64,000 nucleotides of DNA from assembly GCA_038210985.1 (NCBI GenBank), contig JBBQWB010000004.1, forward strand, positions 7,456-71,455, given 5' to 3'. The DNA is from Bacteroidales bacterium. GTDB lineage: Bacteria > Bacteroidota > Bacteroidia > Bacteroidales > WCHB1-69. Under the pieces are notes generated by a model. It was not told the origin of the DNA, did no database searches, and worked only from the letters and a program-made list of their open reading frames with translations. Shown here one piece after another: positions 7,554 to 46,108 of this stretch. The position numbers were made by a program, and so were the translations under genes. The stretch's first letter is position 1; each line of letters opens with the position of its first letter.

Positions 7554-7623
7554 AGTACAAGAATTTCGAATTTAAAAAAACTGCTCAAAGCCTATAATAT
7601 ATTTATACTAATATAACAATCTT

Positions 7624-14480: not shown

Positions 14481-14509
14481 GTTTATGATTTATGTTGTTT
14501 TGTTAAATA

Positions 14510-17398: not shown

Positions 17399-17977
17399 TT
17401 ATTTTGTTTTAGGTGTTGTAGTTTTAGGCTGAGTTGTGGTGGTGTTATTTGTTTTATTATCTTGAGGTGATATTCCTAATTTATCCAGAATTTCATCGCT
17501 AATATCTAATTTTGAGTCGGCATAGATAATTGTTAATGCACCTGCTTTGTCGAAAATAAACGAATAATTTTTACCTCTTGCATATTCTTCGATAGCATTA
17601 AAAACTTTATCTTGAATAGGTTTAATTAATTCTTGACGTTTTTTAAACAAATCGCCATTATTTCCAAAACGTTTTTTCTGTAATTCTTTCGCATCTTTTT
17701 CAGTATTAATAATTTCATCTTCTCTTTTTTTCTTCATGTCTTCGGGAAGAAGAACGGCATCTGCTTGAAACTTTTTATACATTTGATCAATTTCGGTAAA
17801 TTTTTTCTCAATTTCTTTTTGCCAATCGATAGATAGTTTATCAAGTTCTGCCTGTGCACCTTTATACTCGGGCATATTGTCGAGAATATATTGAGTATCT
17901 ACGTAAGCATATTTTTGAGCATTTGCTTGAAATGAAATCAAAAATGCGATAACACTAATTAAAATTAATTTCTTCAT
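17399..17977 (-). CDS. OmpH/Skp family periplasmic chaperone with a Thr/Pro/Lys-rich tail
   Basis: MKKLILISVIAFLISFQANAQ signal peptide. I prefer ATG 17977, which is preceded by GGAGG, over the track start at 17989. Confidence 0.8.
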   Translation of the reverse strand: MKKLILISVIAFLISFQANAQKYAYVDTQYILDNMPEYKGAQAELDKLSIDWQKEIEKKFTEIDQMYKKFQADAVLLPEDMKKKREDEIINTEKDAKELQKKRFGNNGDLFKKRQELIKPIQDKVFNAIEEYARGKNYSFIFDKAGALTIIYADSKLDISDEILDKLGISPQDNKTNNTTTTQPKTTTPKTK

Positions 17978-18054
17978 AATTACCTCCATTATTTTTTATT
18001 TATTGTTTTTAATTTTAAAATGACCTCCGAATACTAGCAAAAAGCATACCAATA

Positions 18055-20685
18055 CTAATCAATAGATTGATTGATTGAAAAATGGAATTGACCTTTGTTT
18101 GCTCCTGGAATACCTGGAACCGCATCAAACCCATAACCCCAATCTAATCCAAGAACGCCGAACATAGGCAAAAACACACGAACACCAAAACCTGCCGATT
18201 TATACATTTTAAAAGGGCTGAATTGATTAAACGACGACCATGTATTTCCCGATTCAACAAAACTTAATAAATAAATTGTAGCCGAAGGATTCAACGAAAC
18301 AGGATAGCGAATTTCGGCAGTGTATTTTGTAAATATTGAAGCTCCAACATAACCACTTGGTCCTGCTGGGGTTAATGTATTATTTCCGTATCCACGCATT
18401 CCTATTAACTCACGACCATCCAGTGCAAAACCCGATAAACCATCTCCACCTAAATAAAATCGTTCAAAAGGTGAAATTCCAATATTAGAATTATACGTTC
18501 CTAAATATCCAAAACGGAATCGTAAACTTGCCACAAAATTATCTACTATGTTAGAGTACCAAGATGCATTGAACTTCCATTTATGATATTCTAACCATCT
18601 GTATTTATCTTGGTCGGTAAGAGTTGAATAATCATCAATGTTTTTTAACAACGAATAAGGTGGTGTAAGTTGCAACGACAATCCAATTTCGGAACCTTTA
18701 CGAGGGAAAATTGGAGCATCAATCGAATTTCTACTTAATGAAATAGTATAGCTTACATTGTTTGAGTATCCATTGCTAAAACTAAAAATAGAAGTATAAT
18801 TATTTAGCACATAATTTTGAAAACTTACACCTTGACTTAAAATAAAGAAATCATCGGGCCATTTTAAACGCTGAGCCAAACTAAATGAAACTCCGTTAAT
18901 ATCAATAGACTGTCTTTTATCATCGGTGCGTTTTAGTCCATTACTTTGAACTGAATGATACGCTGAAACACTAAAGGCATTTGGTTTTTTTCCACCAAGC
19001 CAAGGTTCGGTAAAGGAAACACTATACGATTGATACCAAGCACCATTTGACTGTGCACGGAAACTAACTTTTTGTCCGTCGCCAGTTGGAATTGGACGCC
19101 ATGCACCTTTTTTAAACAACTTTTTGCTCGAAAAATTATTAAAGGAAACGCCAATTGTTCCAACAACCATTCCTGCACCCCAACCTCCAGAAAGCTCTAG
19201 TTGGTCGGAGGATGTTTCTTCCACGGTATATTCAATATCAACGGTTCCATCTATTGGATTTGGTTTGGGATTAATACCAATAGTTTCCTGATTAAAATAT
19301 CGGAGCTGAGCCATTTCACGTTGCGAACGTATGATGTCGGCACGACTAAATAATTCGCCAGGAATTGTTCTTAATTCACGAATAATAACATGGTCGTTGG
19401 TGCGGGTGTTTCCAACAATTGTAATTTTATTAATTCGAGCTTGTTTGCCTTCATTAATTCGGATATCAATGTCGATAGAATCGTTTTCGACATTCACTTC
19501 AACAGGATTTGCCGAAAAAAACAGATATCCATCATCGAGATATAGAGAATACACATCGGAACCACTTGCATTATACATTAAATTTGATTCCATTGTTTTA
19601 TGGTCGTAAACATCTCCTTTTTTAATTGCTAAAATTTGGGTTAAATATTCGTCGGTATATTTTGTATTTCCAACCCAATTAATATTACGGAAGTAAAATT
19701 TATTTCCTTCTTCTACTTTAATACCAATATTCATCGATTTATTTGAAACTTTATAAAAAGTATCTGAAATAATTCGAGCGTCGCGATAACCTTTTGAGTT
19801 GTAATAAGTCATTAAAGCTCTTTTATCCGACTCATAATCTTCCATAATAAATTTTGAAGATTTAAAAATTCGGAGTTTAACACGTTCCGAAAAATAGTCA
19901 ACAAAAATATCTGATAATTCTTGTTTACGATATTCGCTATAATTTTTAACTACATGAACTAAAAATGTATCAATTTTTTCGAGAGGGAAAAACCTTAGCT
20001 GTTCTTTGGTTTCTTTAAACGAGCTAATTAATTTTGATTTTGGGATTCCATTATTTCCTTCGAAATAAATTTCGTTGATTTTTATTTTTTTATTTTTCGT
20101 AACAGTTATAAGTAAAGCTAAGCTGTTTGCCATGCTTGTATCTACTTCTTGACGGATGTTTACACCCACATTAAAAAACCCTTTATTGCGAAAGCGTTTT
20201 AAAATCAAATTTTTTGTATTAACAATTAAATGCTCTGTAACCACATCGCCACGATTTAGCTTAATATCTTCTCTAATTTCATCGGCTTCGGTTTTTCGAA
20301 CTCCAACAATTGAGAATCGAGATAATCGTGGGCGTTCGACAAGAAAAAATTCGATAAAAATCAAATTTCCTTCAATTTTAGTTACCGATACGCTAATATC
20401 ATCAAACAAATCCTGACTCCATAGTTTTTGAATTGCATCCGAAATTTTTTCGCCAGGGATACGAATTTTATCGCCAACCGATATTCCAGTAAGGGCAATA
20501 ATTGAATTGTGATCATAATATTTAACACCACTAACCGTAATTCCACCTATTTCGTAGTCTTTAGGATTAGTGTAATCAATATTTATTTCATCCGAAGCAC
20601 CTATTTGAATTTGGGCAAATGAAAATTGTGGAATTATAAGAAAAAAATAGAAAGGAAGAAGTAGCGGTAATAATTTGATTTTCAT
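18055..20685 (-). CDS. bamA: Outer membrane protein assembly factor BamA
   Basis: POTRA-like repeats followed by a C-terminal Omp85 barrel (...GLDWGYGF...QFHFSI). I place the start at ATG 20685 (MKIKLLPLLLPFYFF signal peptide). The track's longer N-terminus overlaps the uppS coding region. Confidence 0.9.
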   Translation of the reverse strand: MKIKLLPLLLPFYFFLIIPQFSFAQIQIGASDEINIDYTNPKDYEIGGITVSGVKYYDHNSIIALTGISVGDKIRIPGEKISDAIQKLWSQDLFDDISVSVTKIEGNLIFIEFFLVERPRLSRFSIVGVRKTEADEIREDIKLNRGDVVTEHLIVNTKNLILKRFRNKGFFNVGVNIRQEVDTSMANSLALLITVTKNKKIKINEIYFEGNNGIPKSKLISSFKETKEQLRFFPLEKIDTFLVHVVKNYSEYRKQELSDIFVDYFSERVKLRIFKSSKFIMEDYESDKRALMTYYNSKGYRDARIISDTFYKVSNKSMNIGIKVEEGNKFYFRNINWVGNTKYTDEYLTQILAIKKGDVYDHKTMESNLMYNASGSDVYSLYLDDGYLFFSANPVEVNVENDSIDIDIRINEGKQARINKITIVGNTRTNDHVIIRELRTIPGELFSRADIIRSQREMAQLRYFNQETIGINPKPNPIDGTVDIEYTVEETSSDQLELSGGWGAGMVVGTIGVSFNNFSSKKLFKKGAWRPIPTGDGQKVSFRAQSNGAWYQSYSVSFTEPWLGGKKPNAFSVSAYHSVQSNGLKRTDDKRQSIDINGVSFSLAQRLKWPDDFFILSQGVSFQNYVLNNYTSIFSFSNGYSNNVSYTISLSRNSIDAPIFPRKGSEIGLSLQLTPPYSLLKNIDDYSTLTDQDKYRWLEYHKWKFNASWYSNIVDNFVASLRFRFGYLGTYNSNIGISPFERFYLGGDGLSGFALDGRELIGMRGYGNNTLTPAGPSGYVGASIFTKYTAEIRYPVSLNPSATIYLLSFVESGNTWSSFNQFSPFKMYKSAGFGVRVFLPMFGVLGLDWGYGFDAVPGIPGANKGQFHFSINQSID

Positions 20686-20725
20686 AGTTAATGGGTTTCG
20701 CATATCAATCCGCAAATGTATTAAA

Positions 20726-21475
20726 TTATTGTTTATCTTGAATTTGTTTGCTAGTTTTTCCAAATCGGCGTTCACGGTGTTGAAAATCGAAAATAGTTTC
20801 AAATAAAGTTTCTTTATTAAAATCGGGCCAAAGCGTTGGAATAAACGCAAACTCGCTGTATGAAGCCTGCCACATCAAAAAGTTACTTAGACGACTTTCG
20901 CCACTTGTACGAATTATCAACTCAGGGTCGGGCATAAAAGAGGTAGAAAGGTTCTCGGTAATCGTTTTTTCGGTAATATTTTCGGCTTCTATTTCACGAT
21001 TTTTAACTTTTTCGGAAATAGATTTCACCGCTTCGGTTATTTCCCATCTCGAACTATAACTTAAGGCAATTACAACCGTTAATCCATTATTGTTTTTTGA
21101 TCGTTCAATTATATTAAGCAATTGATTCAGCGTGTTTTTATGTAAGCGATTTATATCTCCAATTGTCTTTATGCAGATATTGTTTTTAATAAGGTCATTA
21201 GATTCTTTTTCGATAGACTCAACCATTAGTTCCATTAGCATATCTACCTCTTCTTTTGGACGATTCCAGTTTTCGGTTGAAAATGCATATAATGTTAAAA
21301 ATTTAACGCCTATTTCAGCAGAGCCTTCAATTACAGCCCGAACAGACTCAACACCTTGCTGATGACCAAAAGTGCGATGTAGTCCTCTTTGTTCAGCCCA
21401 TCTTCCATTACCATCCATTATAATAGCAATATGTTGGGGTGTTTTATTTTTGTCGATTTTTTCTTTAAAACTCAT
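20726..21475 (-). CDS. uppS: Isoprenyl transferase (undecaprenyl-diphosphate synthase)
   Basis: [22 protein letters not shown] and RTSGE.RLSNF motifs. Confidence 0.93.
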
Positions 21476-21510: not shown

Positions 21511-22347
21511 TTACCTTTTTTTACCAACGCTTTTGGATTTATAGGTTGATTTTTGATAAGCACCACAACTTTTAGCACCTTCAAAAATCTTATATGTAAG
21601 CCATAAACCAGTAAAGTTGTACCAATCTTTAGTTTGAGAGTTACCTCTGGCACTTCCTTCGATATGTTTTACATCGCTAGGGTCGGCAATTTGTGCAACT
21701 TTTGGAGAACATTGATCATTATCAGCATACGTTCCACCAATATCGTCGATATAGTCTGTCCATGTTTTACGCATACCCCATTCTAATCCAAGCGAAAAGT
21801 TTCTCAAAAAATTAACTTTAAATCCAATTCCAAAAGGCATACTTACACTAGTTAAAGAGTAATAATCTTTTTTTGGATATTTTTCCAAACCCTGACCTTC
21901 GGTGCCCAATGGTTGTAAATCGTACCAATGATTATCGAGTTGAGATTGTGGATTAAACGAAAAGGCAGAAACACCCACAAACATGTATGGTGAAAAGAAG
22001 TTTTTACCTTTTTGGGTGTATAAATTAAAGAAATTAAATTCTGCTTGAGCCGAAATTTCGGAAATTGGAGAACGGAAGCTTAAATTTCGATCGTTATTGT
22101 AGTTTGTTACCTTATCGCTTGCTTCTAATTGACCAAATAATGCACTCACTTTTAAAGCCCATCGGGAATTAAAATTATAACGATAAATAATACCGCCAGC
22201 TGAATTTGTATTTGTAAAATGTTTTGCGGGGTTTAAGTCGCCAATATAATAAGCTGTACCGACAAAAATGCCCAACTCTGAACGCTGAGCATTCGTAATA
22301 TTACCTGTTAAAAGAAATATTACAAGGAGCCAAAAAATCTTTTTCAT
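21511..22347 (-). CDS. DUF6089-type outer-membrane beta-barrel protein
   Basis: Signal peptide; ELGIFVGTAYYIGDLNP and LQPLGTEGQG; sits in the conserved position next to uppS. Confidence 0.65.
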   Translation of the reverse strand: MKKIFWLLVIFLLTGNITNAQRSELGIFVGTAYYIGDLNPAKHFTNTNSAGGIIYRYNFNSRWALKVSALFGQLEASDKVTNYNNDRNLSFRSPISEISAQAEFNFFNLYTQKGKNFFSPYMFVGVSAFSFNPQSQLDNHWYDLQPLGTEGQGLEKYPKKDYYSLTSVSMPFGIGFKVNFLRNFSLGLEWGMRKTWTDYIDDIGGTYADNDQCSPKVAQIADPSDVKHIEGSARGNSQTKDWYNFTGLWLTYKIFEGAKSCGAYQKSTYKSKSVGKKR

Positions 22348-22368: not shown

Positions 22369-23280
22369 CTAATATTGGAACGAACAAATGTTGGTAGTTG
22401 TTTTAAAGAGGTTAATATAAAGAGTAAATTGTGCAAACATATACGAGTCGTAATTTGATGGATTTCCTCTTTGATTACCTGGACGAGTTGAATAAGCAGC
22501 AATTGGATCGGTTAAATCGGCTGGATTAGAAAAATATGCAGCAACATCTCCTTTTACGCTACGAATTTTATTCACATCAAAATAAGTAGTACTAACATCA
22601 TCCATATAATCCGAATTAGTCCAACGCATTCCATATTCGAATCCCAAGCTGTATCTTCTGTTTATATCATATTTAAGACCAACTCCGTAAGGGATAGTAA
22701 GTGCAAATTTAGAGTATGGTTTTCTGGTTTCCACTAAACCTTGTCCTTCGGTACCTAAAGGTTGAAGTGCTACCCACGAACCATCTGTATATTTTCCTTT
22801 AGGATTTGTATAAGCTCCTCCAACACCCGCAAAAACGTAACTTGTAATTGGCACTCGGTTGGTTTTACGACGTCCCCATTGTTTACCAACATTTTGCATG
22901 GTTAAATAAAACTCGGCTTGACCCGAAACCTCCACTAAAATAGAGCGAAAATGTAAATTACGAACATTTCGGTTAATTTGTTTTGTCCAAACATCATCTC
23001 CACCAATCCATCCAAAATAACCATTTGCTTTTAAGTTTAAACGTTCCAAAAGTCGATAGCTATAACCAACTCCCATAATAGCTCGAGTAGATTGGATATC
23101 AAAATCTTTTAACCCAAACGAACCAATATCTTTTGAACCACCTAAGTCACCTAAAAAGTTAGAACCACCTAAATGAACAGTTATAAATGACCGGTTTTTT
23201 TTCCATCTTTGTGCATTTGCCTGATTGTAAAATCCTAACACAAAAACTATTAGTATCGTTATTCTAAGCCAATTTTTCAT
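22369..23280 (-). CDS. DUF6089-type outer-membrane beta-barrel protein (tandem paralog)
   Basis: Shares GGSNFLGDLGG, LQPLGTEGQG and W(T)(D/N)(S)DY(I/M)DD blocks with 21511-22347. Confidence 0.65.
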   Translation of the reverse strand: MKNWLRITILIVFVLGFYNQANAQRWKKNRSFITVHLGGSNFLGDLGGSKDIGSFGLKDFDIQSTRAIMGVGYSYRLLERLNLKANGYFGWIGGDDVWTKQINRNVRNLHFRSILVEVSGQAEFYLTMQNVGKQWGRRKTNRVPITSYVFAGVGGAYTNPKGKYTDGSWVALQPLGTEGQGLVETRKPYSKFALTIPYGVGLKYDINRRYSLGFEYGMRWTNSDYMDDVSTTYFDVNKIRSVKGDVAAYFSNPADLTDPIAAYSTRPGNQRGNPSNYDSYMFAQFTLYINLFKTTTNICSFQY

Positions 23281-29116: not shown

Positions 29117-32100
29117 TTATCTAATTATTACCATTTTACCGAACTCTTTTACAAAATATTTTGAGGCTCCCGTGCTTTTCTTTTCAATTTGTTCACCCTG
29201 AATATTTGTCATTATTCTGTACAAATATACACCATTTGCTAATTGGTCGCCAAAATTATCTTTGCCATCCCAAGCATAATCGGTAATATTACGACCAATA
29301 TGAATACTTCCAAGTTCTGAAAGGTCGATTTCACGAACTAACTTTCCCGAAATGGTCATAATTTGAATTTTAAAATAGGTAGGAATTTCGGAACCTGTTA
29401 ACGTAAAAACAAATCGGGTAGAACTAGAAAATGGATTAGGCCAATTCATTACTTCGGTTATGGTTGATTTGTTTATTATCTCGAACGAAATAGTGTATTT
29501 GTTATTTCCAGATAAATTTCCCGACTTATCCATGCCTTCAACCATCATTTTATATATGCCATCCACAGTAAAAGAAGCGTTGTAAAGAATATGAGATTTG
29601 TTTTTATTATTTGCAGGGATAAATTGCATTATAGTTCTAAATCCATCGTAAAAAGGTATCCTTTTATATTCGGTTTCGCCTGGAGCCATTATTTGAACTC
29701 TAAACAATGAGGTGTCTTGAATACTATTTAAAAGCAAATATTGATTTTCATCTTTTAATGTAATTTGTATCTGTGGTTTTGCCGAAACAATATCATTGTT
29801 TAAAATATGAACTCCATCAAAAGTTACGTCCATAACTGGATTTATTCGATCGGGGTTTACACTAAAATAAAATTCAGCAATATTATTAAAATGGTACATT
29901 TCAACCTGATCATTGTTCGGGTTAAATTCTACTTGTAAAGTATTATAGCCCGATAAATCGATGGATGACATTGCCACAGTTGCCGTAAGAACATCTCCTA
30001 CTGGGTGCAATCGAAGTCGTTTGTAAATTATACGAATAGGAACGTTTTCTTTAATAATTCTGAAAACAACTAATAAACTATCCATGTTCGACAAGCCAAT
30101 GTTTTGGGTAGAAATGGATAATTTTACCGAATCTCCTTGATTGACATCATCTCCCGAATAACTAAAAGCAACGCTTGGATTAATTGCCGTTTCGGGAGCT
30201 GGATCATACACCACATGCCACCTTATTAGCTGAGTTGGAGTAGTGTGGATATTATCTTTTGAAAATAATTTTAGCTTTAAATATGGAAATTGATGAACGT
30301 CAATTCTTTGGTTAAGATTATACAAATCCAAAGTGTCGGTAGTAAGTTTTTCAATAAGAATAGTTTCTTCACCAAAGTTATTAATTCCGATAACTCTTAG
30401 TGATATCTCATCGGTGTTTGGATTTTCGAGGCTTTGAGACCGCCAGTGAAGGCTTCCCCAGCTTAAAGCAGGTCCAACAATTTCGGAAGTTATACTACCT
30501 TCGTCCCAATTTGTAGAATATTGAGCATTAATATGGATAATTTGAGTTTCGTTTGCGGCAACTGCTTCAACTACATTTGGATCGCCAATTGGAATTCCTT
30601 TTCTACCAAAAACTATATATGGATTATTCCAGTGCAAGTTGCGAATTTGAGAACTACCAAACGATTCAAATGCCTGATACAAAGCTTCGGGATATGTATC
30701 TGCATAATGGTTTCGATGGCTCATTGCCAACACATAATATCCATTTGGAATAGAGTTTATATAACTCAAAATACTGTCTTTATTAGCAGGCGTTACGGCT
30801 TGAAAATCGGCAGCTGGAACAGGATATGTTTTACAAATTGCTTGTCCTCTAAGCCCAATACTGTCGGGATTCATCCAAAAATCTCCAGAAATCGGATTAA
30901 TTACGGCAATTTTCATCCCATTTCCCGTATTGCTTAAGCACGACCACTGATCCTGAACCAAACCATTAACTCTAAACCAAATTTCGGTCCATGGCATTCC
31001 ATAGCCAAAATAACCAGTTTGAGCCGTTAGAGCTTTAATGTCTTGAGCAAATTCAAATTTACGTTGTGGCTTGTTATATTTAACAAATTGGTAATCATCG
31101 TTTTTAAATTGAAAAAAGTGAGCCTGTCCCCAACCACGTTTACCTATTATATATTGAAAAGAACTTTCGCGCCAATTATTTGTACCCGTTTTTTCTACTC
31201 TCCAATAATACACCGTTGAATCTGTTAATAAAAATGGCAACGACCATTCCACAATTCCACCCGATGATTGAACCGAAAACTGTTGTTTAAAAGGACTATT
31301 AAAAGCATCGGTTGTATCTATCTCGAAAGAGTAATTGCCTGAAGTTGTAAAAACAGTTCCTGTAGATGCTTTTAAAATGGTTTGAGCATCCGGAATTACC
31401 GCATATTTGTATGGATAAACTGGAATAATATCCGAAGATGAAATTAAAAATTGAACACTTACAATATTGTTATTTTCGCTGTATTCGTCCACTTCATTAT
31501 AATCGTCTAATGAAACTCGCAGTGTATTGTTTCCGATGCCATTTAATCTATCCACAGGAAGTTTAAAAATTATTGTATCGCTAGATAAAGGAGCTTTAAT
31601 TCGCAACAAGGTGTCTTTAGTAATATTGTTCGGAAACATTCGTGTTATTTTAACCAATATTGAATCGTTAATGGCACGAGCAATATTTCGACAAAGAATA
31701 CGAACATAAAAACTATCAATTTCGGTGGTTATATTTGATGGATTAAATAAAATATTATTTGGTTCGATAATATAATCAGGTTTTTCAAACGAATTTAGAA
31801 CAATTGCAGGGTCGCCATGATAGGTCATGTCTAAGCTGGTTTCTTTAATCCACACCAAAGGTTCAAGATTTTTAATGGTTTGTTGAATAATATAACCTAA
31901 CGGTTTACCATAGCATAAATATCCAAAATTTCGATAAAACATGTTTGCATAATTATTCATATAAATATCACTACCCGAGCTAACCGAAGCCAAATAAGCA
32001 ATAGTTCCTTTGTTGGCTATTAAAACAAATTCCTCACTGCTACTTCCTCTATCATAATTTACGCCCGAAGTAAAAAGGTCGCCAGCAAAACACGAAAGTC

Positions 32101-34126
32101 CTAAAAGGAGAGGATATTTCCCGTAATTTGTGTATTCGCTTGGATTATCAATACTTATATCGTAGCCAATACCCGAAGCATGTCCAAAAAAAGTCATTAA
32201 TGTAACGCCATTATTAATAATATCCTTTAAAGAGTCGGATTGATTAATTTGAATTGGCTCTGTAGTTGTTTTTTTGAATGTTTTAACCACTGCACCAAAA
32301 AGGGTATCTTCAATAATGGCTTTATATTGATTTAAATATCCTAAAAGCATTTGATGATGCAAATCACCACTTCCGGCAAAATGCAAAATGTTCTTCATCC
32401 ATGGTTTTGGTGATTGAATAGCAACTTCATGTTCACGAACTTTATTCAAATAAAGCAGAACATGGTCGGGTGTTTTTGCACTTAATCGACCAGTTGGAAT
32501 GGCAGGATAGTATGAATTTGGGTCGATTAATCCAGATGTAAACATAATATCCGAAGGAGGAACCCCCATTGTGGGAACTAAGGTTCGACCATACCAAGCT
32601 CCTGTTTTTCGATAAGTTGGCATAGAAGTGGAGTTTTCGGCCGACCGATATGATTTTCCGATGATGAACAAATGTTTTGGGATTCCGCTAAAACGAGCTA
32701 TTGCAAACTTCATAAAATTTCGAATGGAAAGCGGATTTTTGCGAATACCATACGAAAACTGATCGTATAAATCATCAATATCTACCACAATTGGATTATA
32801 CAAAGTTGGATAACCGGAAGTTCGTCGATATTCTTTATATTGTTGTGCTTCGTTCCAAAGTGAACGATGGGTGATAATAATATAATCTGAGTTAGCATAC
32901 TCGGATGTTGAATAATCAATAAAAGACCCATTACCATTCACGGGCGTGAGTTCCAAAATGGTTTTCATTTTAAAATCCGATGTAATAAAAACCTCTTTAT
33001 CGCCTCCAAAATTTTGCATTAAGGACGATATTTGAGTTCCATTTTTAACTGAATTTACACGAATTCCGTTGGTTAAATCATACATTCTAACGGAGTCGCC
33101 TGCTGCTGTAGCGATTCCGGGAGCAATTAAATGCAATGTGCTTTTTGGAAGACTTCCAAATTCAGGTAATTTTAGAAGATAAGTGTTTGTGTTTTCTAAA
33201 GTTAAAGTGTGGGGATAAACTACTTTAATAAACGAAATTGTTTGTCGATCGGATGCGCTACCTTGGTCATTAACCGAAGAAAAAACAAACGAAGTATTTG
33301 TACTTCCTAAATATTGTGGAGGAATGGTTCGGTTAAAACGAAAGTGTTTATATTCATTAAAAACAGTATCGATTGTATTTTGAGGAAAAACAACTCGCAA
33401 ATGGTGAACTGGACTTGACTCACTGGCAACACCAAATTCTACTTGTGCCAATGGACCTCCCGAATATGCGTTTGTAGATGGAATTAATTTAGTTTTGGAT
33501 TGACCATTTGAGTAAACCCCATCCATCCAACCTTCGCCATCATCGTATTCGACCCGCACGCTACCATAAGCTGATAAAGGTCCTAAATAATAGCTCGAAT
33601 TATAGTTTTGTGCGGAGGTAAACATAAAATATGGAGCCTCGTTATACGATGAAAAATTTGAATTATTTTCAATAGCCATACGTTTTCCATTCAAATTTAC
33701 CGACCATGTAATGTAATACGATGCAGTATCGTTAAACAAACTATAATAAGGATTTGCTTGAAAATTTGGGTTTGAATAAAGCTGAGCATCCAGCCATCCG
33801 TCGTTTCGTTTACAATATACTTCGATAAAATCGCCAGCTTCCAAATATCCTTTTTCTTCGCCTTTTACATATATTGCAAGTTCCTGACCTCGTCCATAAA
33901 TTTTCAAACCTTTCGGATTAAACGTTTGAAGAGATATTCCAACTTGACTAAAGCCTGTTTCAAGCGTTTCGAAAGGGATTTTATAAATTCCATCTTCGGT
34001 TACCGAAAATCGAACAAATTTTTGAGAATGTTGTATCCATTCGTTCCCAAAAGTTTGACCTTGTAAACCTGAAAAGTTTACAAGTATCAATACGCTAAGG
34101 AAAAAAATAGATAAAAATCTCTTCAT
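29117..34126 (-). CDS. C25-family cysteine peptidase, PorU-like candidate T9SS sortase (1669 aa)
   Basis: Signal peptide. N-terminal NEWI...DGIYKI region as in PorU-type proteins. Gingipain-type dyad context FFGH(649)ASG and LGLSC(679)FAGD (codons at 32180-32182 and 32090-32092). C-terminal FlgD-Ig/T9SS-CTD-like WPNPFS...WDGKDNFGDQLANGVYLYRI. Confidence 0.7.
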   Translation of the reverse strand: MKRFLSIFFLSVLILVNFSGLQGQTFGNEWIQHSQKFVRFSVTEDGIYKIPFETLETGFSQVGISLQTFNPKGLKIYGRGQELAIYVKGEEKGYLEAGDFIEVYCKRNDGWLDAQLYSNPNFQANPYYSLFNDTASYYITWSVNLNGKRMAIENNSNFSSYNEAPYFMFTSAQNYNSSYYLGPLSAYGSVRVEYDDGEGWMDGVYSNGQSKTKLIPSTNAYSGGPLAQVEFGVASESSPVHHLRVVFPQNTIDTVFNEYKHFRFNRTIPPQYLGSTNTSFVFSSVNDQGSASDRQTISFIKVVYPHTLTLENTNTYLLKLPEFGSLPKSTLHLIAPGIATAAGDSVRMYDLTNGIRVNSVKNGTQISSLMQNFGGDKEVFITSDFKMKTILELTPVNGNGSFIDYSTSEYANSDYIIITHRSLWNEAQQYKEYRRTSGYPTLYNPIVVDIDDLYDQFSYGIRKNPLSIRNFMKFAIARFSGIPKHLFIIGKSYRSAENSTSMPTYRKTGAWYGRTLVPTMGVPPSDIMFTSGLIDPNSYYPAIPTGRLSAKTPDHVLLYLNKVREHEVAIQSPKPWMKNILHFAGSGDLHHQMLLGYLNQYKAIIEDTLFGAVVKTFKKTTTEPIQINQSDSLKDIINNGVTLMTFFGHASGIGYDISIDNPSEYTNYGKYPLLLGLSCFAGDLFTSGVNYDRGSSSEEFVLIANKGTIAYLASVSSGSDIYMNNYANMFYRNFGYLCYGKPLGYIIQQTIKNLEPLVWIKETSLDMTYHGDPAIVLNSFEKPDYIIEPNNILFNPSNITTEIDSFYVRILCRNIARAINDSILVKITRMFPNNITKDTLLRIKAPLSSDTIIFKLPVDRLNGIGNNTLRVSLDDYNEVDEYSENNNIVSVQFLISSSDIIPVYPYKYAVIPDAQTILKASTGTVFTTSGNYSFEIDTTDAFNSPFKQQFSVQSSGGIVEWSLPFLLTDSTVYYWRVEKTGTNNWRESSFQYIIGKRGWGQAHFFQFKNDDYQFVKYNKPQRKFEFAQDIKALTAQTGYFGYGMPWTEIWFRVNGLVQDQWSCLSNTGNGMKIAVINPISGDFWMNPDSIGLRGQAICKTYPVPAADFQAVTPANKDSILSYINSIPNGYYVLAMSHRNHYADTYPEALYQAFESFGSSQIRNLHWNNPYIVFGRKGIPIGDPNVVEAVAANETQIIHINAQYSTNWDEGSITSEIVGPALSWGSLHWRSQSLENPNTDEISLRVIGINNFGEETILIEKLTTDTLDLYNLNQRIDVHQFPYLKLKLFSKDNIHTTPTQLIRWHVVYDPAPETAINPSVAFSYSGDDVNQGDSVKLSISTQNIGLSNMDSLLVVFRIIKENVPIRIIYKRLRLHPVGDVLTATVAMSSIDLSGYNTLQVEFNPNNDQVEMYHFNNIAEFYFSVNPDRINPVMDVTFDGVHILNNDIVSAKPQIQITLKDENQYLLLNSIQDTSLFRVQIMAPGETEYKRIPFYDGFRTIMQFIPANNKNKSHILYNASFTVDGIYKMMVEGMDKSGNLSGNNKYTISFEIINKSTITEVMNWPNPFSSSTRFVFTLTGSEIPTYFKIQIMTISGKLVREIDLSELGSIHIGRNITDYAWDGKDNFGDQLANGVYLYRIMTNIQGEQIEKKSTGASKYFVKEFGKMVIIR

Positions 34127-34138
34127 AATTAATTATTT

Positions 34139-35251
34139 TTAAAATGAAGATGCAGATTTAGTTTCACTTGGTTTATTTAGATTTAATCGCAACGAAAAAA
34201 CATTTGAGTAAACAGCTATGGATTTATCGCCAATATCGCTAAGGGCATAATCGATTGAAAGCACTTTTTTAATAACTACTCCCACACCAATATTAAACTG
34301 ATAAGACCAAAATTTATCTTTCACAAAATCCGATTCTTGCTGAATATTACCAATACCTCCACGAACAAAAAGCAAATCTTTATAACCTATTTCTAATCCC
34401 ATGTGAGGATCGATGCTAAATGGCTTTGATTTAATTAGCACATTTCTTTTACCATCGGTTGTAATATCAAAATCGAGTGCAACTAGAGCAGAAATATCTT
34501 TGGGTAAATTAAACTTTCGGCTACCTCCAAAAATAAATTTTGGCAAAGTAAATTCGATTGAATTTGTTGGAATTTCATTGCCTGTTTCTACAAAAACTTC
34601 AATCATTCGATCGGATAAATTATAGCTCCATGCATTAAATGTGGAAGTAACATCGCGTCCCATAACTCCAAAATTCCATTTTTTGTAATTATATTGAGCA
34701 CCAAAATCAAGTCCAAAACCCCACGAGCCAGCAAAATCGCCAATAACCCTACGAACAATTTTCACATTTCCACCAATTTGTAAGCCTATAATTTTCTGCA
34801 TTTTACGTGCATAGGAAAATAAAATACCGTAATCTGCAGCCGAAAAAGATGTAATTCTATTGTAATCAATGTTTCCTTGATTGTCAATAAGGTCGGTTGT
34901 ATTTGGGATATCATCTACTCCAAAGCGGATAATGGATAAGGCTGCTGCTGAATTTTCGTCGAATTTTATAGCAAAAGAGCCGTAATCGTATTTTGCAATT
35001 CCAGCAAAATATTCGGCATGCATTAAGGATAATTGCCTATCGTTGGTCATTCCAACTAATCCCGCTGGATTCCAATAACCAGCAGTTCCATCATTTACAA
35101 ACGAAACTTGCGTATTTGACATGGCTAAAGCACGAGCACCCACCCCAATACTTAAAAATTCGTTGCTGTATTTTGGAGCTTGTGCATAAGTTTGAAAAGA
35201 TAATATCGCCAATATTAGCAAAAAGCACCACCTAATTTTTTTCACTTTCAT
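34139..35251 (-). CDS. PorV/PorQ-family outer-membrane beta-barrel protein (T9SS shuttle-like)
   Basis: Signal peptide ...QTYAQA. NEFLSIGVGARALAMSNTQV...GYWNPAGL is the N-terminal motif I associate with PorV/PorQ-type barrels. Alternating beta-strand pattern. Sits 12 nt upstream of the C25 gene. Confidence 0.6.
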   Translation of the reverse strand: MKVKKIRWCFLLILAILSFQTYAQAPKYSNEFLSIGVGARALAMSNTQVSFVNDGTAGYWNPAGLVGMTNDRQLSLMHAEYFAGIAKYDYGSFAIKFDENSAAALSIIRFGVDDIPNTTDLIDNQGNIDYNRITSFSAADYGILFSYARKMQKIIGLQIGGNVKIVRRVIGDFAGSWGFGLDFGAQYNYKKWNFGVMGRDVTSTFNAWSYNLSDRMIEVFVETGNEIPTNSIEFTLPKFIFGGSRKFNLPKDISALVALDFDITTDGKRNVLIKSKPFSIDPHMGLEIGYKDLLFVRGGIGNIQQESDFVKDKFWSYQFNIGVGVVIKKVLSIDYALSDIGDKSIAVYSNVFSLRLNLNKPSETKSASSF

Positions 35252-35290: not shown

Positions 35291-35788
35291 TCAGTTATTT
35301 AGTGTTTGTTCGGGGTCAATTTTATTGAAAATTGGCTTATTGATTGCTCTTTTCTTTTGAAAAAAAGTTTTAATCAATAAGCTACATTCTTTTTTCAGGA
35401 CACCTTCACGCACAATTGTTTTAGGATGAAGCATTTCGGGATTAATCATACGATATCCTCGTTTGGTGTCGGAAGTTGCAAAAATCAATTCGGATACTTG
35501 CGCCCAATGTATTGCTCCTGCACACATTGGACAAGGCTCAAGGGTAACATATAACTTACAATCGACCAAATATTTACCACCCAATGTGTTTGCTGCCGAA
35601 GTAATTGCTTGCATTTCGGCATGAGCCGTTACATCGTTTAAACATTCGGTTAAATTGTGCGTGCGAGCAATAATTCGATTGTTGTGAACGATAACGCAAC
35701 CAACTGGAACCTCATCTTTTTCAAAAGCCTTAACTGCTTCTTTAAGAGCCTCGTTCATAAAATACTCTTCGGAGAATATGGTTATCAT
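35291..35788 (-). CDS. tadA: tRNA adenosine(34) deaminase
   Basis: HAEMQAI and PCPMCAGA zinc motifs; 165 aa. Confidence 0.9.
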   Translation of the reverse strand: MITIFSEEYFMNEALKEAVKAFEKDEVPVGCVIVHNNRIIARTHNLTECLNDVTAHAEMQAITSAANTLGGKYLVDCKLYVTLEPCPMCAGAIHWAQVSELIFATSDTKRGYRMINPEMLHPKTIVREGVLKKECSLLIKTFFQKKRAINKPIFNKIDPEQTLNN

Positions 35789-38700
35789 ATTTTTATAAAT
35801 TTTTCGACAATTACTCGAACTTCGTTTGAAATACGAATATAAAAAACTCCTTTTTGCAAATGAGAAATTGGAATATTTATAGCAGATTCGATAGAAACAC
35901 CTGCGTAAACCAATTGCCCCATTGAGTCATAAATTTCAATATCCGCACCCACTAAATCGCTACCAGTTAAATTTATTTTATCAATTGCAGGTTTAGGATA
36001 TATTTTAAAATCATTGCTTATAAAAAAAGGTCGATTTGACACGGTATTTGAAAACGACATAGTGCGAAAAGTGTTAACCATTGTAAAGCAAGTGTCGGGT
36101 TTTAATGCTCCAACATAATAGGTAGTAAAACCCTCTTTTTGCTCTGGGTCAACAAACGACAAAGCCGAACCAGAAAGGACTGCAATTTGCTCAAATGGCT
36201 TATTTTCGTATGCTCTAAAAATAACAAAAGCAGAAGGAAGATAACCTTGATATGGAGTCCACGAAATTTGCCATTTGTTTTGTTCCGTTAATGATAAACT
36301 TGCAAATATTGTTTTATGCTTGTTGCTCAAAGGAGTTGTAAAACCGCAAGTATCCACAATGCTTATTTGATATTCGGCAGAACCATATTGTGCAACGGTA
36401 TGTTCGTCAATCCAAACGTTTCCAAATTGTGCTTTTATGGTTGTTTGTTTTATCATGTCTCCAAATTGATTTTTTTTGAACACATTAATCGAATCCAGAA
36501 CATGAGAAGGTGGAACAATCCATTGAACAATATTTCTGTCGTAATTAAATTCATAACCTGCGATACAAATTTCGGCAGTAATCAAGGCTGGCAATGGTAT
36601 TAAATGAATATTTGCCGAAGCACTACATTCGCCCGATTGATTTGTAGCCACAACTGTATAGGTTATTTCGCCACCATAGCTAACCAAAGGGTCGGCAATA
36701 TGAGGATTATTTAAGCCAGTTTGTGGAGTCCATTCCCAATTTAATAAACCAATGTTTGGATTATTTACATTTGGGCTTAATTGTATTCGTTCGCCACAAT
36801 TAAGTTGTGTGTTTGGAGGCAAGGAAATCTGCAAAGGAATAACATTAACAAGCACCGAGTCGGTTCCAGTGCATCCGTTAGGATCGGTAACAACAACACT
36901 GTAAACAGTTGTGTCGGAAGGAGATGCCGTTGGATTGAATAAAGAATTATTGTTTAAACTTGTCGAAGGACTCCAAAGAAAATTTGTGCCTGGCAACAGA
37001 TTATTTACAGTTACCGATATTTGAGTTTGTTGACCGCAATAAATTGTTGTGTCGTTGGATGCCGTAACCATTGTGGAACCAACATGCACCCAAATAGTAT
37101 CATACGCTTCACATCCGTTTGGATTGGAAACTTTAACAACATATTGGATATTCGTTAATGGAGTACAAATTGGATTTGAAGTATCGGGATTTGATAAAAA
37201 AGTGGAAGGCGTCCATTGATACGTTACGTTTTCATCGCTATTTAAATTTGTTTCGGCATGTAATTCAACTGGAGTTCCACAAGTTGGAATTAAATCGCCA
37301 CCAGCACTTACAACCAACGAATTTACCGTAACAACAACGGTGTCAATATCATAACAACCAGACTGAGTTTGCATTGAAAAATAATAGGTGCTAGAGTGAG
37401 ATGGAAATGGCTCCACTGTATCGGCGTTAAAACTTTGTAAACCTTGCGAATCGACCCACGTATTTACTGAATTTGGATAATCGTATCTCAAAAGTGTTCC
37501 ATTTAAACCTACTGCAATTCCGTGGTGATCATCGGTAAATACAATCGACCTAAGTTCTTGTTGAGTGTTGCTTTTCATCAAATACCAATGAATTCCACCA
37601 TCCATACTCTTGAAAATCAACCCATTCGAACCAGTTAAGTAAACCACATTGTTGCTTTGAAAATAAACCGAAGTGTAATTTTGCAAACTACCTGTAGAAA
37701 CTTCTTCCCAAGTAACTCCACCATTAATCGTTTTCAACAAAGTTCCATTATTTCCGCAAATAAAACCAATTTGGTTATTTAACATGCAAACATCTCGCAA
37801 ATGCTGAGTGGTAACTGTGCCAATTGCTCCAAAACTACTTCCATCGTTTAATGATTTTAAAATTAATCCATCTTGACCCGAAATAAAAATTGACCCATTT
37901 GGTGAAAACGTAATGGAATTTAAGTTTTTTTGATAGCCTGTATTTATTACAGTCCAACTATTGCCACCATCGATGGTTTTTAACACAAAGCCATTATCGC
38001 ACACAGCCATTCCAAAACTTGAATTTCGGAACTTAATTTTATTAATATTTTGGGTGTTTCCGGTAAATAAATATTGCCATTGAAAACCTCCATTTTTGCT
38101 AATTGCTAAAACCCCAGAGTAACCACCAGCAACATACACCCCATTATCGTTATGAGCCACCGCTCGAAACAATGAACCACTTCCATTTCCAATTTTATAT
38201 CGTTCGATTGTTTCGCCATTATTGAAAATTTTCATTAAACTATCTCCATAAATAACTTGAACCACATTTCCGTCTGCAATAACTTGCTCTAATAATTTCG
38301 TAGTATTTGATGTTGCCGATTTCCATTCAAAATCGCCATACAATGTAAATTCATCCGCACAAACAATTGTTCTGTCTTCGTTGGCATAAACATTGGCTGG
38401 CAAAACTTGAATAAAAACCGAATCTTTTACCGAACAACCATTGGATGTGGTTGCTTGCAGTTTATACAAACCCGATGAAGAAGAAATAAATCCAGTATTT
38501 GCTGCCGATGGGTTTTCAATTCCAACAGAAGGTGTCCATTGATATGAGGCAAAAACATCCACATTTTTCAATATCGTTCCCGAAGCACCAACTGCAAACG
38601 CTTTGTTTTCTCCTATGCAAAAAATTCCATATAAATTTTGTGAAATTATTTTCGGAATTGGATACCAGCTTTCTCCAGCATCAAAGGTGTAAATAATTAA

Positions 38701-39807
38701 TCCATTGGAACCAACCGCATAAGCCGTAGAATTATCTATAAAACTCATTCGGTAAATATGTTCGGTAGTGTTCGAGTTTAATTTAATCCATGTTTGCCCA
38801 GCATTTGTTGTTTTTAACATCAATCCATATTCGCCACAAGCAAAACCTGTTTGTGAATTTGAAAAATAGACATCCAAAATATTGTTGTTTAACGAAAGTT
38901 GATTGTTTTGCCAAATTACACCAGAGTTTGTGGTTTTCATAATTATACCTTGGTCGCAAACTGCATAACCGATATCTTGACTTGTAAAATGAATTCCGTT
39001 AATTCGATTGCTATTTGGCAATGAAATTGACCCCCAAGAAGTTCCACCGTTGGATGTTTTAAAAATATAGGTTGTGGTAGAACCAGTTCCTCCAGTAGCA
39101 AAACCGAGTTGTGAATTTACAAAAAACATATCCCGAATTGGCTGTGCGTTGCCTGTGGAAACATTTTGCCAAGTTGAGCCAGAATTTGCTGTTCGATAAA
39201 TTATTCCATTATTTCCATAAACAAAACCAGTGTTTGTATTAAAAAAGTAGCTGCCCAATAAATCATAGGAGCCAGGAGTTGAAACATCCGTCCATGAACT
39301 TCCACCATCGTTGGTTTTGAATACTTTTCCTCCAAATCCAGATACAAATCCGCTATCGGCATTTAAAAAACTAACTCCTTTAAAATCAAGGATTCCAAGT
39401 TGATTTAATGGCTGCCACTTTGTATTTGAAAAAAGCATGATGGAGTTTCCACAAGATATAATTCTATCGGTTCCAGTTTCTATTTTTGGATTTGAAACAA
39501 AAACGCGGATGGTATCTCTCATCACACAACCACTTGGTGTTGTTGCGGTTATAAAATAATCGCGAGTAGCATTTGGAAAAACTTTTGGATTCAGAGTTTG
39601 AGCGTTCACCATCGAACCCGTTGGAGTCCATTGCCAAGTTGCCGAATCGGGATAAGCATAGGATGTGGTTGCAAATAACGGAACGCTATCGCCACAAATT
39701 AAATGTTTATCGCTGCCAGCATTAACAGACAAAGTACTACAATCTTGGGCAGAAACGCCCAAAACAGATATTAACAAACCTATCAGTGTGAATGGAAATA
39801 TTTTCAT
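35785..39807 (-). CDS. T9SS-secreted protein with two Ycf48/BNR-like beta-propellers and multiple Cys-containing Ig-like modules
   Basis: Signal peptide. Two blocks of SxDxGxTW-like blades (TNDGGSSW, TANSGSTW, TSNGGTSW, TTNSGVIW, TTNAGQTW, TFDAGESW; then SKNGGFQW, TIDGGNSW, SLNDGSSF, TINGGVTW, SMDGGIHW). Repeated C.G..V.L.A...Y.W.P modules. C-terminal Por_Secre_tail-like FKIYPKPAIDKINL...GVFYIRI. Confidence 0.8.
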   Translation of the reverse strand: MKIFPFTLIGLLISVLGVSAQDCSTLSVNAGSDKHLICGDSVPLFATTSYAYPDSATWQWTPTGSMVNAQTLNPKVFPNATRDYFITATTPSGCVMRDTIRVFVSNPKIETGTDRIISCGNSIMLFSNTKWQPLNQLGILDFKGVSFLNADSGFVSGFGGKVFKTNDGGSSWTDVSTPGSYDLLGSYFFNTNTGFVYGNNGIIYRTANSGSTWQNVSTGNAQPIRDMFFVNSQLGFATGGTGSTTTYIFKTSNGGTSWGSISLPNSNRINGIHFTSQDIGYAVCDQGIIMKTTNSGVIWQNNQLSLNNNILDVYFSNSQTGFACGEYGLMLKTTNAGQTWIKLNSNTTEHIYRMSFIDNSTAYAVGSNGLIIYTFDAGESWYPIPKIISQNLYGIFCIGENKAFAVGASGTILKNVDVFASYQWTPSVGIENPSAANTGFISSSSGLYKLQATTSNGCSVKDSVFIQVLPANVYANEDRTIVCADEFTLYGDFEWKSATSNTTKLLEQVIADGNVVQVIYGDSLMKIFNNGETIERYKIGNGSGSLFRAVAHNDNGVYVAGGYSGVLAISKNGGFQWQYLFTGNTQNINKIKFRNSSFGMAVCDNGFVLKTIDGGNSWTVINTGYQKNLNSITFSPNGSIFISGQDGLILKSLNDGSSFGAIGTVTTQHLRDVCMLNNQIGFICGNNGTLLKTINGGVTWEEVSTGSLQNYTSVYFQSNNVVYLTGSNGLIFKSMDGGIHWYLMKSNTQQELRSIVFTDDHHGIAVGLNGTLLRYDYPNSVNTWVDSQGLQSFNADTVEPFPSHSSTYYFSMQTQSGCYDIDTVVVTVNSLVVSAGGDLIPTCGTPVELHAETNLNSDENVTYQWTPSTFLSNPDTSNPICTPLTNIQYVVKVSNPNGCEAYDTIWVHVGSTMVTASNDTTIYCGQQTQISVTVNNLLPGTNFLWSPSTSLNNNSLFNPTASPSDTTVYSVVVTDPNGCTGTDSVLVNVIPLQISLPPNTQLNCGERIQLSPNVNNPNIGLLNWEWTPQTGLNNPHIADPLVSYGGEITYTVVATNQSGECSASANIHLIPLPALITAEICIAGYEFNYDRNIVQWIVPPSHVLDSINVFKKNQFGDMIKQTTIKAQFGNVWIDEHTVAQYGSAEYQISIVDTCGFTTPLSNKHKTIFASLSLTEQNKWQISWTPYQGYLPSAFVIFRAYENKPFEQIAVLSGSALSFVDPEQKEGFTTYYVGALKPDTCFTMVNTFRTMSFSNTVSNRPFFISNDFKIYPKPAIDKINLTGSDLVGADIEIYDSMGQLVYAGVSIESAINIPISHLQKGVFYIRISNEVRVIVEKFIKI

Positions 39808-44269: not shown

Positions 44270-46108
44270 TTATTCTTTCAGAAGTTTATATGTCTGTTGT
44301 GGAGAGTCTCCAATTTGTAGCAGATAAACTCCTGAAGAAAGTCCTTTTAGTTTGACAAGCACTTGTTTGTTGTCAAGAATCCCTGAAAAAATTTCTTTCC
44401 CAGCGTGGTCAAGCAACTTGTATGGCTTGTTAAGCAACAAATCACCAATTTCAACGTGTATAAAATCCGTAGTTGGATTGGGATATATTTTTAAGTCGGA
44501 AAAACATTGTTCGTGGATTGACGATGAAGGATTTTTTGTTGTAAAACTCCATACATCGCTGTATGTTCCCCAATTTGTTCCGTCTGAGGCTCTAACTCTC
44601 CAATAGTATTGCATATTTGGAAGCAAGTTAGATGCATTATAATTAGAAGATGAAACAGTAAATGTTTGAGGTGTACTATTAAATGTTTGAGAAACGTCAA
44701 TGTCTATTTCATAAAAGATTGCACCAAAAGCATTTGACCAAGTAAAAGCTAAGTTTGTTATATTTTGATCTACCGATTGATTTATAGGAGTTATCAACTG
44801 AAAATTATTTAAATCAGGAATTTCATTCCCCAAGTATCTTGCAATTGCAAAATCTCCACCTGTATAACCCACTGCAACAATTTTGTTGTCTGTTTGTATC
44901 GCAATGCCAAAACATTCATTAAGTGAATTGCCACCAAATGTAGTAGTAGTTTTTCCGTTTGTGCCAAATGAATTATCTAATGTATTGGCAGAAGTTATTC
45001 GGGCTATGGCAAATGATTTATTGTTTGTATTTCCAGTAAATCCTCCAAAAATAATTCTTCCATTATTATCTTCCGTGGATGAATAAATAACTTCATCCTC
45101 CAGATTATTTCCCCAATTGGTTGAATAAAGACTTGTTGCTAAACTGCCGCTATTGTTTATTTCAAAAAACGAAAAATCATATCTCATGGTATTGATATAG
45201 CCACCACCTGCTACAAGTAAATTTCCACTTGGTCTTAGTGTAAGGGAAAAAGCTTTATCGTTTCCGTTAAATCCTCCATTAAAAACATTTACACCATCAC
45301 TCGAAAATGTATTATCCATTGTTCCATCGCTATTAATTCTACAAGCCCAATAGTCTGCATCTGCCATTGAAGTGGGGAAATCTCGCCAACCCACGGCACT
45401 AATTTTTCCATTTGCTTGAACAATCAAATCTTCCACAGAAAAGAGGTATTGGTAATCCAAACTTGTAATCCATAACAAACGAATACCATTATTATTAAAC
45501 GTGTTATCCAGCGTTCCGTTGCTTAAATATCTGGCAACAACAGGCTTAGAAACCGAAGAACTTATAATTGTTGCTCCACCTACAATGATGTTACCAGTTA
45601 GTGGATGTATTTTGACAACTTTAATTTCATCTTGCTGTGAATTTTCAAAATCGGTCAAAACAATTCCATTGATACCAAATGTGTTATCCAAGGTTCCGTC
45701 ATTATTGTATCTAACTATTGCTGCTTCTTTATTGCTTCCATTATCGCTATATCCCGCCAAAACTATTTTTCCATCGGTTTGCAATGCTACGCTATATGCC
45801 ACATCATCACTTCCTAATTGTACATCCGTTGTAACAATTCCATTATTCCCAAATGTATTATCCAACGAACCATCTGTATTATATCTCACAACTGCAAAGT
45901 CTTTACCTGTTAATGTACTTGTTGAATTTCCAGCAACGATAGTTTTTCCATCCGATTGAATAACTATCCCGTAAGCCTTGTCTTGACCTGTGGATATGGA
46001 AGTTACAACTTTACCAGCGTTTCCAAATGTTGGGTCAAGTGTTCCGGCAGGTTGTGCCAACACATTTAATGTTATTAGCATTATCAAAATTGTGAGGATG
46101 TTTCTCAT
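44270..46108 (-). CDS. T9SS-secreted delta-60-repeat (beta-propeller) protein with FN3-like and C-terminal sorting domains
   Basis: Signal peptide. Repeated LD.TFG.NG.V...(D/G)GK.(I/V)..G units (delta-60 repeat pattern). C-terminal LKIYPNPTTDFIHVE...GVYLLQI T9SS tail. Confidence 0.8.
   Translation of the reverse strand: MRNILTILIMLITLNVLAQPAGTLDPTFGNAGKVVTSISTGQDKAYGIVIQSDGKTIVAGNSTSTLTGKDFAVVRYNTDGSLDNTFGNNGIVTTDVQLGSDDVAYSVALQTDGKIVLAGYSDNGSNKEAAIVRYNNDGTLDNTFGINGIVLTDFENSQQDEIKVVKIHPLTGNIIVGGATIISSSVSKPVVARYLSNGTLDNTFNNNGIRLLWITSLDYQYLFSVEDLIVQANGKISAVGWRDFPTSMADADYWACRINSDGTMDNTFSSDGVNVFNGGFNGNDKAFSLTLRPSGNLLVAGGGYINTMRYDFSFFEINNSGSLATSLYSTNWGNNLEDEVIYSSTEDNNGRIIFGGFTGNTNNKSFAIARITSANTLDNSFGTNGKTTTTFGGNSLNECFGIAIQTDNKIVAVGYTGGDFAIARYLGNEIPDLNNFQLITPINQSVDQNITNLAFTWSNAFGAIFYEIDIDVSQTFNSTPQTFTVSSSNYNASNLLPNMQYYWRVRASDGTNWGTYSDVWSFTTKNPSSSIHEQCFSDLKIYPNPTTDFIHVEIGDLLLNKPYKLLDHAGKEIFSGILDNKQVLVKLKGLSSGVYLLQIGDSPQQTYKLLKE

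Follow-up and report, generated by a model that had tools for sequence, protein, structure and literature searches.

A barrel-first PorV2–PorU2 operon in a Bacteroidales genome: a putative type IX secretion peptidase and its candidate outer-membrane partner

Do two adjacent genes that resemble porV and porU constitute the core pair of a type IX secretion system (T9SS), or do they form a paralogous pair that stands apart from it? The question is raised by a locus on contig JBBQWB010000004.1 of a Bacteroidales bacterium (assembly GCA_038210985.1), where a gene for an outer-membrane β-barrel, porV2, and one for a large secreted cysteine peptidase, porU2, lie next to each other within the window analyzed here, a stretch of 64,000 nucleotides (nt; positions 7,456–71,455 of the contig; Table 1). 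A preliminary description of this DNA had claimed two open reading frames (ORFs) separated by a 12-nt gap, and the ORF listing gives exactly those coordinates, strands and lengths. The motifs that it quoted are likewise present, GNEWIQHSQKFVRFSVTEDGIYKI close to the N terminus of the peptidase and YSNEFLSIGVGARALAMSN close to the N terminus of the barrel.

Both proteins were scored against NCBIfam release 20, which holds dedicated models for each of them, and the curated cut-offs were applied. The peptidase passed NF052324 (PorU_rel_Nterm, “putative type IX secretion system sortase PorU2”) with 734.6 bits against a cut-off of 450 (E = 1.7e-220), residues 9–887 matching positions 3–879 of the 879 in the model. 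It failed NF033707, the model of canonical PorU, the T9SS sortase (191.8 bits against a cut-off of 420), which was matched only over positions 3–734 of 1095. The barrel passed NF052325 (PorVQ2, “putative type IX sorting system protein PorV2”) with 518 bits against 325 (E = 1e-155; positions 9–354 of 354) and also the PorV/PorQ family model NF033709 (102.2 bits against 90), while failing both the PorQ model NF033711 (74.3 bits against 220) and the PorV model NF033710 (35.3 bits against 250) and remaining below the cut-off of the Pfam PorV model PF19572 (19.2 against 27). Judged from sequence, these are genuine homology matches, chance being excluded, and membership in the PorU2 and PorV2 families is near certain. 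The preliminary description had proposed a paralogous PorU-like/PorV-like pair apart from the core porU and porV; this classification is correct, because the curated models separate the pair from canonical PorU, PorV and PorQ, and the scoring returned neither an orthologous porU/porV nor an unrelated outer-membrane protein in place of the barrel. The pair is an ordinary, typical member of an already catalogued, still “putative” family, and the hypothesis predates this analysis. Among the PorV2 homologs, one NCBI record already bears the PorV2 name, and older records of homologs are labeled “PorV/PorQ family protein” or “C25 family cysteine peptidase.”

PorU2 begins with a signal peptide followed by Gln24 (the +1 Gln), a residue found in 68 of 75 PorU2 sequences and in agreement with the Bacteroidetes Q-rule for Sec/SPI substrates (PMC5837995). 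Profile scores place residues 9–887 in homology with the pre-catalytic and catalytic domains of PorU, and the C25 domain is recognized by its Pfam model (Table 1), bearing out the C25 peptidase with a PorU-like N terminus that had been described from the letters. The catalytic dyad is intact. His649 and Cys679 are each invariant in two alignments of relatives (26/26 and 75/75 sequences), His649 pairing with the His of the AGHG motif of Porphyromonas gingivalis PorU and Cys679 with the catalytic Cys, residue C688 of the PorU chain. The latter would correspond to Cys690, since the catalytic Cys of PorU is placed 32 residues before Arg722 by Gorasia et al. in 2015 (PMC4560394). A PorU2 family profile matched the catalytic domain of PorU in PDB 6za2 (whole-sequence E = 4.2e-13; 35.3 bits for the catalytic stretch) and, more weakly, gingipain R (E = 3e-7).

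The ∼780 residues that follow the PorU-like part were modeled as a chain of β-sandwich domains with one α/β ILEI-like domain (pLDDT 69.9, pTM 0.35), and a Foldseek search with the C-terminal half of PorU2 returned only generic Ig, FN3 and macroglobulin-chain matches (TM ≤0.20) and no functional lead. The ILEI-like domain is the best-modeled part of this region (pLDDT ∼90), and the corresponding segment is the least conserved of PorU2, with zero invariant columns in the 75-sequence alignment. A confident ILEI model (residues 1101–1200) together with low conservation would be in keeping with a ligand-binding module that is specific to each lineage; many Flavobacteriales-type relatives have, instead of ILEI, a recorded CARDB match (PF07705), its position in the protein not checked.

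The C-terminal sorting domain (CTD), comprising the last 114 residues, is the most conserved region of PorU2 (majority fraction 0.76 versus 0.55 for the C25 domain), as expected of a docking module, and conservation runs to the last residues. Residues 1546–1647 align to 1043–1144 of the P. gingivalis PorU CTD in 6za2 (whole-sequence E = 8e-4), the match of the CTD region with the family profile being weak (12.8 bits; stretch E = 0.14). The FlgD-Ig/CTD-like tail noted earlier stands in part: it aligns to the PorU CTD, but remains below the cut-offs of FlgD_ig (24.2 against 27, residues 1583–1638) and of the type A CTD model TIGR04183 (17.5 against 23). The same TIGR04183 model is passed by two other proteins encoded within 11 kb (37.6 and 31.8 bits), and these two type A CTD proteins, together with a PorG-like barrel above its cut-off (Table 1), indicate that the genome has a T9SS.

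A search for PorU2 homologs gave 675 matches at E ≤1e-5; the best 120 of these 675 are 1578–1728 amino acids (aa) long (nearly all 1627–1728) and cover 92–100% of the query (nearly all 99–100%). When one genome per GTDB species was scanned, a PorU2 relative was found in at least 589 species, almost all of them uncultured Bacteroidota, and the best 80 of these at least 589 loci were used for synteny. The 80 carriers are all metagenome-assembled genomes (MAGs), from Lentimicrobiaceae, other Bacteroidales, Marinifilum, Rikenellaceae, Vicingaceae, other Flavobacteriales and unclassified Bacteroidia, with a Lentimicrobiaceae MAG holding the closest relative among them (86% identity), which probably places the source of the window in that family. 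Almost only MAGs were also returned by a search from the Flavobacteriales side of the family, in which the sole species name was that of a MAG assigned to Vicingus serpentipes. Gene order was counted in the 68 of 80 loci where the sequence upstream of porU2 extends for at least 1.1 kb. A porV2 homolog (46–91% identical) lies directly upstream of porU2 on the same strand in 62 of the 68, and three further loci carry a partial porV2 at a contig edge. A 4-nt overlap is the commonest junction (21/64 loci), and 47/64 junctions fall between −8 and +21 nt. The porV2–porU2 pair is a translationally coupled operon, and no gene besides porV2 is consistently linked to porU2 across the 80 loci.

The larger size and the reversed gene order remarked upon in the preliminary description are therefore real by comparison with canonical PorU and porU–porV and are not peculiar to this locus, being the architecture of the family. 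PorU2 is ∼500 aa longer than PorU (1156 aa for the PorU chain in 6za2; 1095 positions in the NCBIfam PorU model) and carries the extra β-sandwich and ILEI-like domains. In PorV2–PorU2 the barrel gene comes first, whereas the canonical order is porU followed by porV, with porV downstream of porU in P. gingivalis and chu_3237 (porU) upstream of chu_3238 (porV) in Cytophaga hutchinsonii (PMC8564354). Given that the canonical order is documented, the barrel-first order is a real, fixed difference of the PorU2/PorV2 family. With canonical PorU–PorV (P. gingivalis PG0026/PG0027, C. hutchinsonii CHU_3237/CHU_3238, PDB 6za2 and 6h3i/8gl6) the present pair has in common a C25 peptidase with a Cys/His dyad, whose N-terminal half is homologous and whose CTD is similar, a partner barrel of PorV/FadL fold, and adjacency of the two genes. 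Set against the NF052324 and NF052325 families, it matches the norm in length, order, coupling, catalytic dyad and CTD, with no notable difference.

PorV2 likewise carries a signal peptide followed by Gln24. The best PDB fold matches of its AlphaFold model (pLDDT 76.5, pTM 0.73) are Flavobacterium johnsoniae PorV (8gl6_F and 6h3i_F; E 4e-13, TM 0.60), and since the closest fold is PorV, an unrelated outer-membrane protein is ruled out. The next matches are FadL, TbuX and TodX (E 6e-10 to 7e-8), strong structural matches of the kind that would be shown by an ordinary FadL-type channel for hydrophobic compounds lying by coincidence beside a C25 protease, and the envelope-lipid genes pssA, lnt and lptB are frequent neighbors in related loci. 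However, FadL-like matches are expected because PorV is itself a FadL homolog (PMC12578637), the top fold matches are PorV, and the PorV/PorQ family model was passed. The channel explanation is effectively refuted by these family scores and by synteny, the two genes being adjacent in 62/68 loci across orders, with overlapping stop and start codons. Mean column identity of PorV2 among 30 diverse homologs is 69%, unusually high for an outer-membrane barrel, and more than 100 PorV2 homolog clusters show 59% identity or more to the PorV2 of the window. In a PorV2 profile search (375 matches at E ≤1e-30; 7798 at E ≤1e-3), the best 150 matches, their families not checked, fall smoothly from 540 to 228 bits with no obvious break.

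The reading favored here, at a probability of roughly 0.6, is that PorU2 is a T9SS-exported surface C25 peptidase, tethered by PorV2, which acts on T9SS cargo and is equipped with recognition domains. Both proteins would be exported by Sec, a signal peptide with a +1 Gln being usual in Bacteroidota, and PorV2 would fold in the outer membrane as a barrel of the FadL/PorV type. Bearing a T9SS CTD, PorU2 would itself be translocated across the outer membrane by the T9SS by means of that domain. It would then probably stay on the surface with its CTD uncleaved and docked to PorV2, by analogy with PorU–PorV and PorZ–PorQ. There it may serve as a Cys/His (C679/H649) peptidase on other T9SS cargo, removing CTDs or otherwise maturing these proteins, perhaps with restriction to a subset of cargo, and the ∼530 extra residues, made up of β-sandwich and variable ILEI-like domains, may supply recognition of substrates or of surface glycans. 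As to precedent, PorU and PorZ are CTD proteins whose CTDs are retained and are bound by PorV and PorQ, respectively, and it has been hypothesized that CTD substrates of cognate PorV-like barrels, such as substrates of type B paired with PorP/SprF, keep their CTDs (reviewed in PMC10202324). Anchoring of type B CTD proteins by PorP/SprF is directly supported (PMC9143113).

Several results weigh against this reading. Arg722 of PorU (PG0026; chain index 720), described by Gorasia et al. in 2015 as conserved in PorU orthologs, absent from gingipains and possibly tied to transpeptidation (PMC4560394), lies within an insertion relative to the PorU2 profile, in a moderately reliable segment of the alignment. 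PorU2 residues 685–749 contain no invariant Arg or Lys, the sole candidate being K706 (54/75). With Arg722 not conserved in PorU2, the chemistry may therefore be hydrolysis rather than transpeptidation. A mirror-tree comparison of the PorU2 CTD with PorV2 gave a partial r of 0.30, versus 0.26–0.35 for three other regions, and thus no CTD-specific co-variation. In six loci with a full-length PorU2, no PorV-like barrel is present although the 10-kb upstream flank is complete. No class of cargo is linked to porV2–porU2, an adjacent CTD protein being conserved in only 2 of 80 loci. Finally, a literature search found no paper that describes or experimentally studies the PorU2/PorV2 family. Text matches to “PorU2” and “PorV2” in T9SS papers were rejected, because what was matched there is PorU or PorV with a superscript citation number after it.

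The same lack of the PorU-specific Arg722 would suit a different role, in which PorU2 is a large, surface-anchored, gingipain-like protease directed at nutrients or at non-T9SS targets and PorV2 is a mere anchor, as PorQ is for PorZ; the two would then be cargo and anchor, not a sortase. Consistent with this, gingipain R is among the matches of the family profile, the PorQ model gives PorV2 a higher score than does the PorV model (a score that remains short of the PorQ cut-off, 220), the long variable run of β-sandwich and ILEI-like domains resembles a substrate-binding stalk, and dedicated pairs of a barrel and a CTD protein are known (PMC9143113). In the pairs formed by PorP/SprF with type B CTD proteins (SprF–SprB, PorP–PG1035), the genetic logic is the same, a barrel gene beside the gene of the anchored CTD protein (PMC9143113, PMC10202324), while the barrels belong to another subfamily, the CTD is of type B, and the partners are not peptidases but adhesins or proteins of other kinds. 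Gingipains (RgpB; PDB 1cvr, 4ief) share the C25 catalytic fold with PorU2 and are T9SS cargo with a CTD; they differ in having no PorU-like N-terminal domains and no dedicated barrel gene, in that their CTD is removed, and in being far smaller. The N-terminal 887 residues of PorU2, by contrast, are homologous to PorU beyond the C25 core shared with gingipains, as reflected in the NF033707 score over PorU positions 3–734, and the PorU2 CTD is specifically like that of PorU. Tight conservation of length and sequence across orders also suits machinery better, nutritional proteases being the class that usually diversifies. An anchored protease is the main alternative, though an unlikely one. PorZ is a non-catalytic carrier of anionic lipopolysaccharide (A-LPS) made of β-propellers, whereas PorU2 has an intact peptidase dyad and an extension that was modeled as β-sandwiches, not propellers. 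The likeness to PorZ–PorQ lies in a CTD protein being retained at the surface through a PorV-like barrel of its own (PMC10202324).

No canonical porU or porV was found within the 64-kb window, nor was a second C25 gene found within 10 kb of PorU2 in the 80 loci. Both observations would fit a scenario in which PorV2 and PorU2 are the sole PorV and PorU of these lineages, a divergent replacement performing general shuttling and CTD removal, and so would the concentration of the family in uncultured lineages of unknown T9SS composition. T9SS genes are, however, normally scattered, so the absence of the canonical pair from 64 kb says little. The curators' names PorU2 and PorV2 imply a pair seen beside PorU and PorV, an argument that rests on naming. 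Moreover, members of the family occur in several orders, among them Bacteroidales and Flavobacteriales, and canonical PorU/PorV are the norm in cultured members of these orders. Replacement of the core pair is considered unlikely, more so than an anchored protease.

A further possibility, whose chances appear slimmer still, is that PorU2 is a self-contained attachment machine. A PorU-type transpeptidase would here be fused with recognition domains of its own, lectin-like (ILEI/GG-type) and Ig-like. With PorV2 as its sole partner, it would perform the task of the four-protein PorQ-U-V-Z assembly, and a subset of cargo would be coupled to a surface acceptor other than A-LPS. This acceptor might be an amine-bearing envelope lipid or glycan, with the recurrent pssA, lnt, lptB, MBOAT and Wzy_C neighbors in related loci as a possible hint.

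With regard to these neighbors, pssA lies divergently upstream of porV2–porU2 in 23 of the 80 loci, lptB is found in 14, lnt lies downstream in 13, and an MBOAT/DltB-like gene is found in 9. In one 4.86-Mb genome, the gene immediately after porU2 is of the Wzy_C (O-antigen ligase-like) type (L082:16172–17680). Such envelope-lipid genes may be a plain chromosomal neighborhood or may hint at a surface acceptor. As functional partners, pssA, lptB and lnt were rejected; being partly conserved housekeeping genes, they are taken as chromosomal neighborhood and not as evidence.

The choice that the T9SS makes between release of cargo and its attachment to the surface is an open question, and according to a review from 2023 the selection of effectors by PorU “remains to be unravelled” (PMC10202324). 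In hundreds of Bacteroidota species, most of them uncultured, a second, strictly conserved PorU-like/PorV-like pair may plausibly contribute to the answer. It is no new kind of system: the hypothesis is already embodied in the models built by the NCBI curators, and PorV2 is a name in use by the annotation pipeline. The present analysis adds the fixed barrel-first architecture with a peptidase of ∼1670 aa and overlapping stop and start codons, as well as the invariant dyad, the CTD as the most conserved region, the missing Arg that has been proposed as specific to the PorU sortase, and the near-exclusively uncultured carriers. Were PorU2 a self-contained attachment machine, widespread environmental Bacteroidota would possess a second pathway for anchoring proteins, one with a chemistry of its own.

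Table 1. Features of the porV2–porU2 locus and T9SS-related genes elsewhere in the window. Positions are in nt of the window; residue numbers refer to PorU2.
Feature	Position	Strand	Description	Basis
porV2	34139–35251	−	370 aa, ATG start; PorV/PorQ (FadL-like) family outer-membrane β-barrel	ORF list and NCBIfam
porU2	29117–34126	−	1669 aa, ATG start; secreted C25-family cysteine peptidase	ORF list and NCBIfam
Spacer, porV2 stop to porU2 start	34127–34138	−	12 nt; operon junction	
Peptidase C25 catalytic domain	31796–32884	−	Residues 415–777	Pfam PF01364, 186.6 bits
Catalytic His649 codon	32180–32182	−	FFGH motif	Position checked by translation
Catalytic Cys679 codon	32090–32092	−	GLSC motif	Position checked by translation
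ILEI/FAM3-like α/β domain	30596–30805	−	Residues 1108–1177	Pfam PF15711, 35.5 bits against cut-off 27
C-terminal T9SS sorting domain (CTD)	29120–29461	−	Residues 1556–1669	Translation; alignment to P. gingivalis PorU CTD
PorG-like outer-membrane barrel 1	21511–22347	−	Passes PorG model	NF052316 PorG, 182.9 bits against cut-off 130
PorG-like outer-membrane barrel 2	22369–23280	−	Below PorG cut-off	PorG, 95.6 bits; Pfam DUF6089
Type A CTD protein	35785–39807	−	1340 aa, Ycf48/BNR-like repeats; likely T9SS cargo	
Type A CTD protein	44270–46108	−	612 aa, delta-60-repeat; likely T9SS cargo	

The immediate neighbors of the pair are housekeeping genes, namely deoC, tadA, mutS2, an envC-like gene, an FKBP/BamJ-like gene and ygiQ. 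A 4-nt overlap joins the stop codon of the gene for the 1340-aa CTD protein to the start of tadA, which puts this gene in one co-directional string with porV2–porU2–deoC. This upstream type A CTD protein was considered as a dedicated cargo and rejected, as it is a neighbor in only 2 of 80 loci. A sigma-70 promoter scan, whose coverage does not extend to Bacteroidota promoters, gave 39 matches versus 56.7 in shuffled sequence, and a terminator scan gave 8 versus 10.2. Immediately downstream of the tandem PorG-like genes come uppS, bamA and two skp/ompH genes (17399–21475), forming a porG–uppS–bamA–skp arrangement. As called, the bamA ORF begins with a TTG at 20850 and shares 125 nt with uppS, so its start is probably a miscall. 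At the left edge of the window, a giant ORF of at least 2523 aa (3–7571, minus strand) runs off the end, with its C terminus beyond the window; it matched no significant NCBIfam or Pfam family, giving only a sub-threshold Reelin sub-repeat match. Genes for a butyrate kinase (536.5 bits against 289.1, above the cut-off) and a phosphate butyryltransferase-like protein (316.7 bits, below the equivalog cut-off of 410.5) adjoin each other on the minus strand (13401–15412 and 15485–16753), suggesting a fermentative anaerobe, and a Peptidase M64 (IgA-peptidase family) gene lies next to them.

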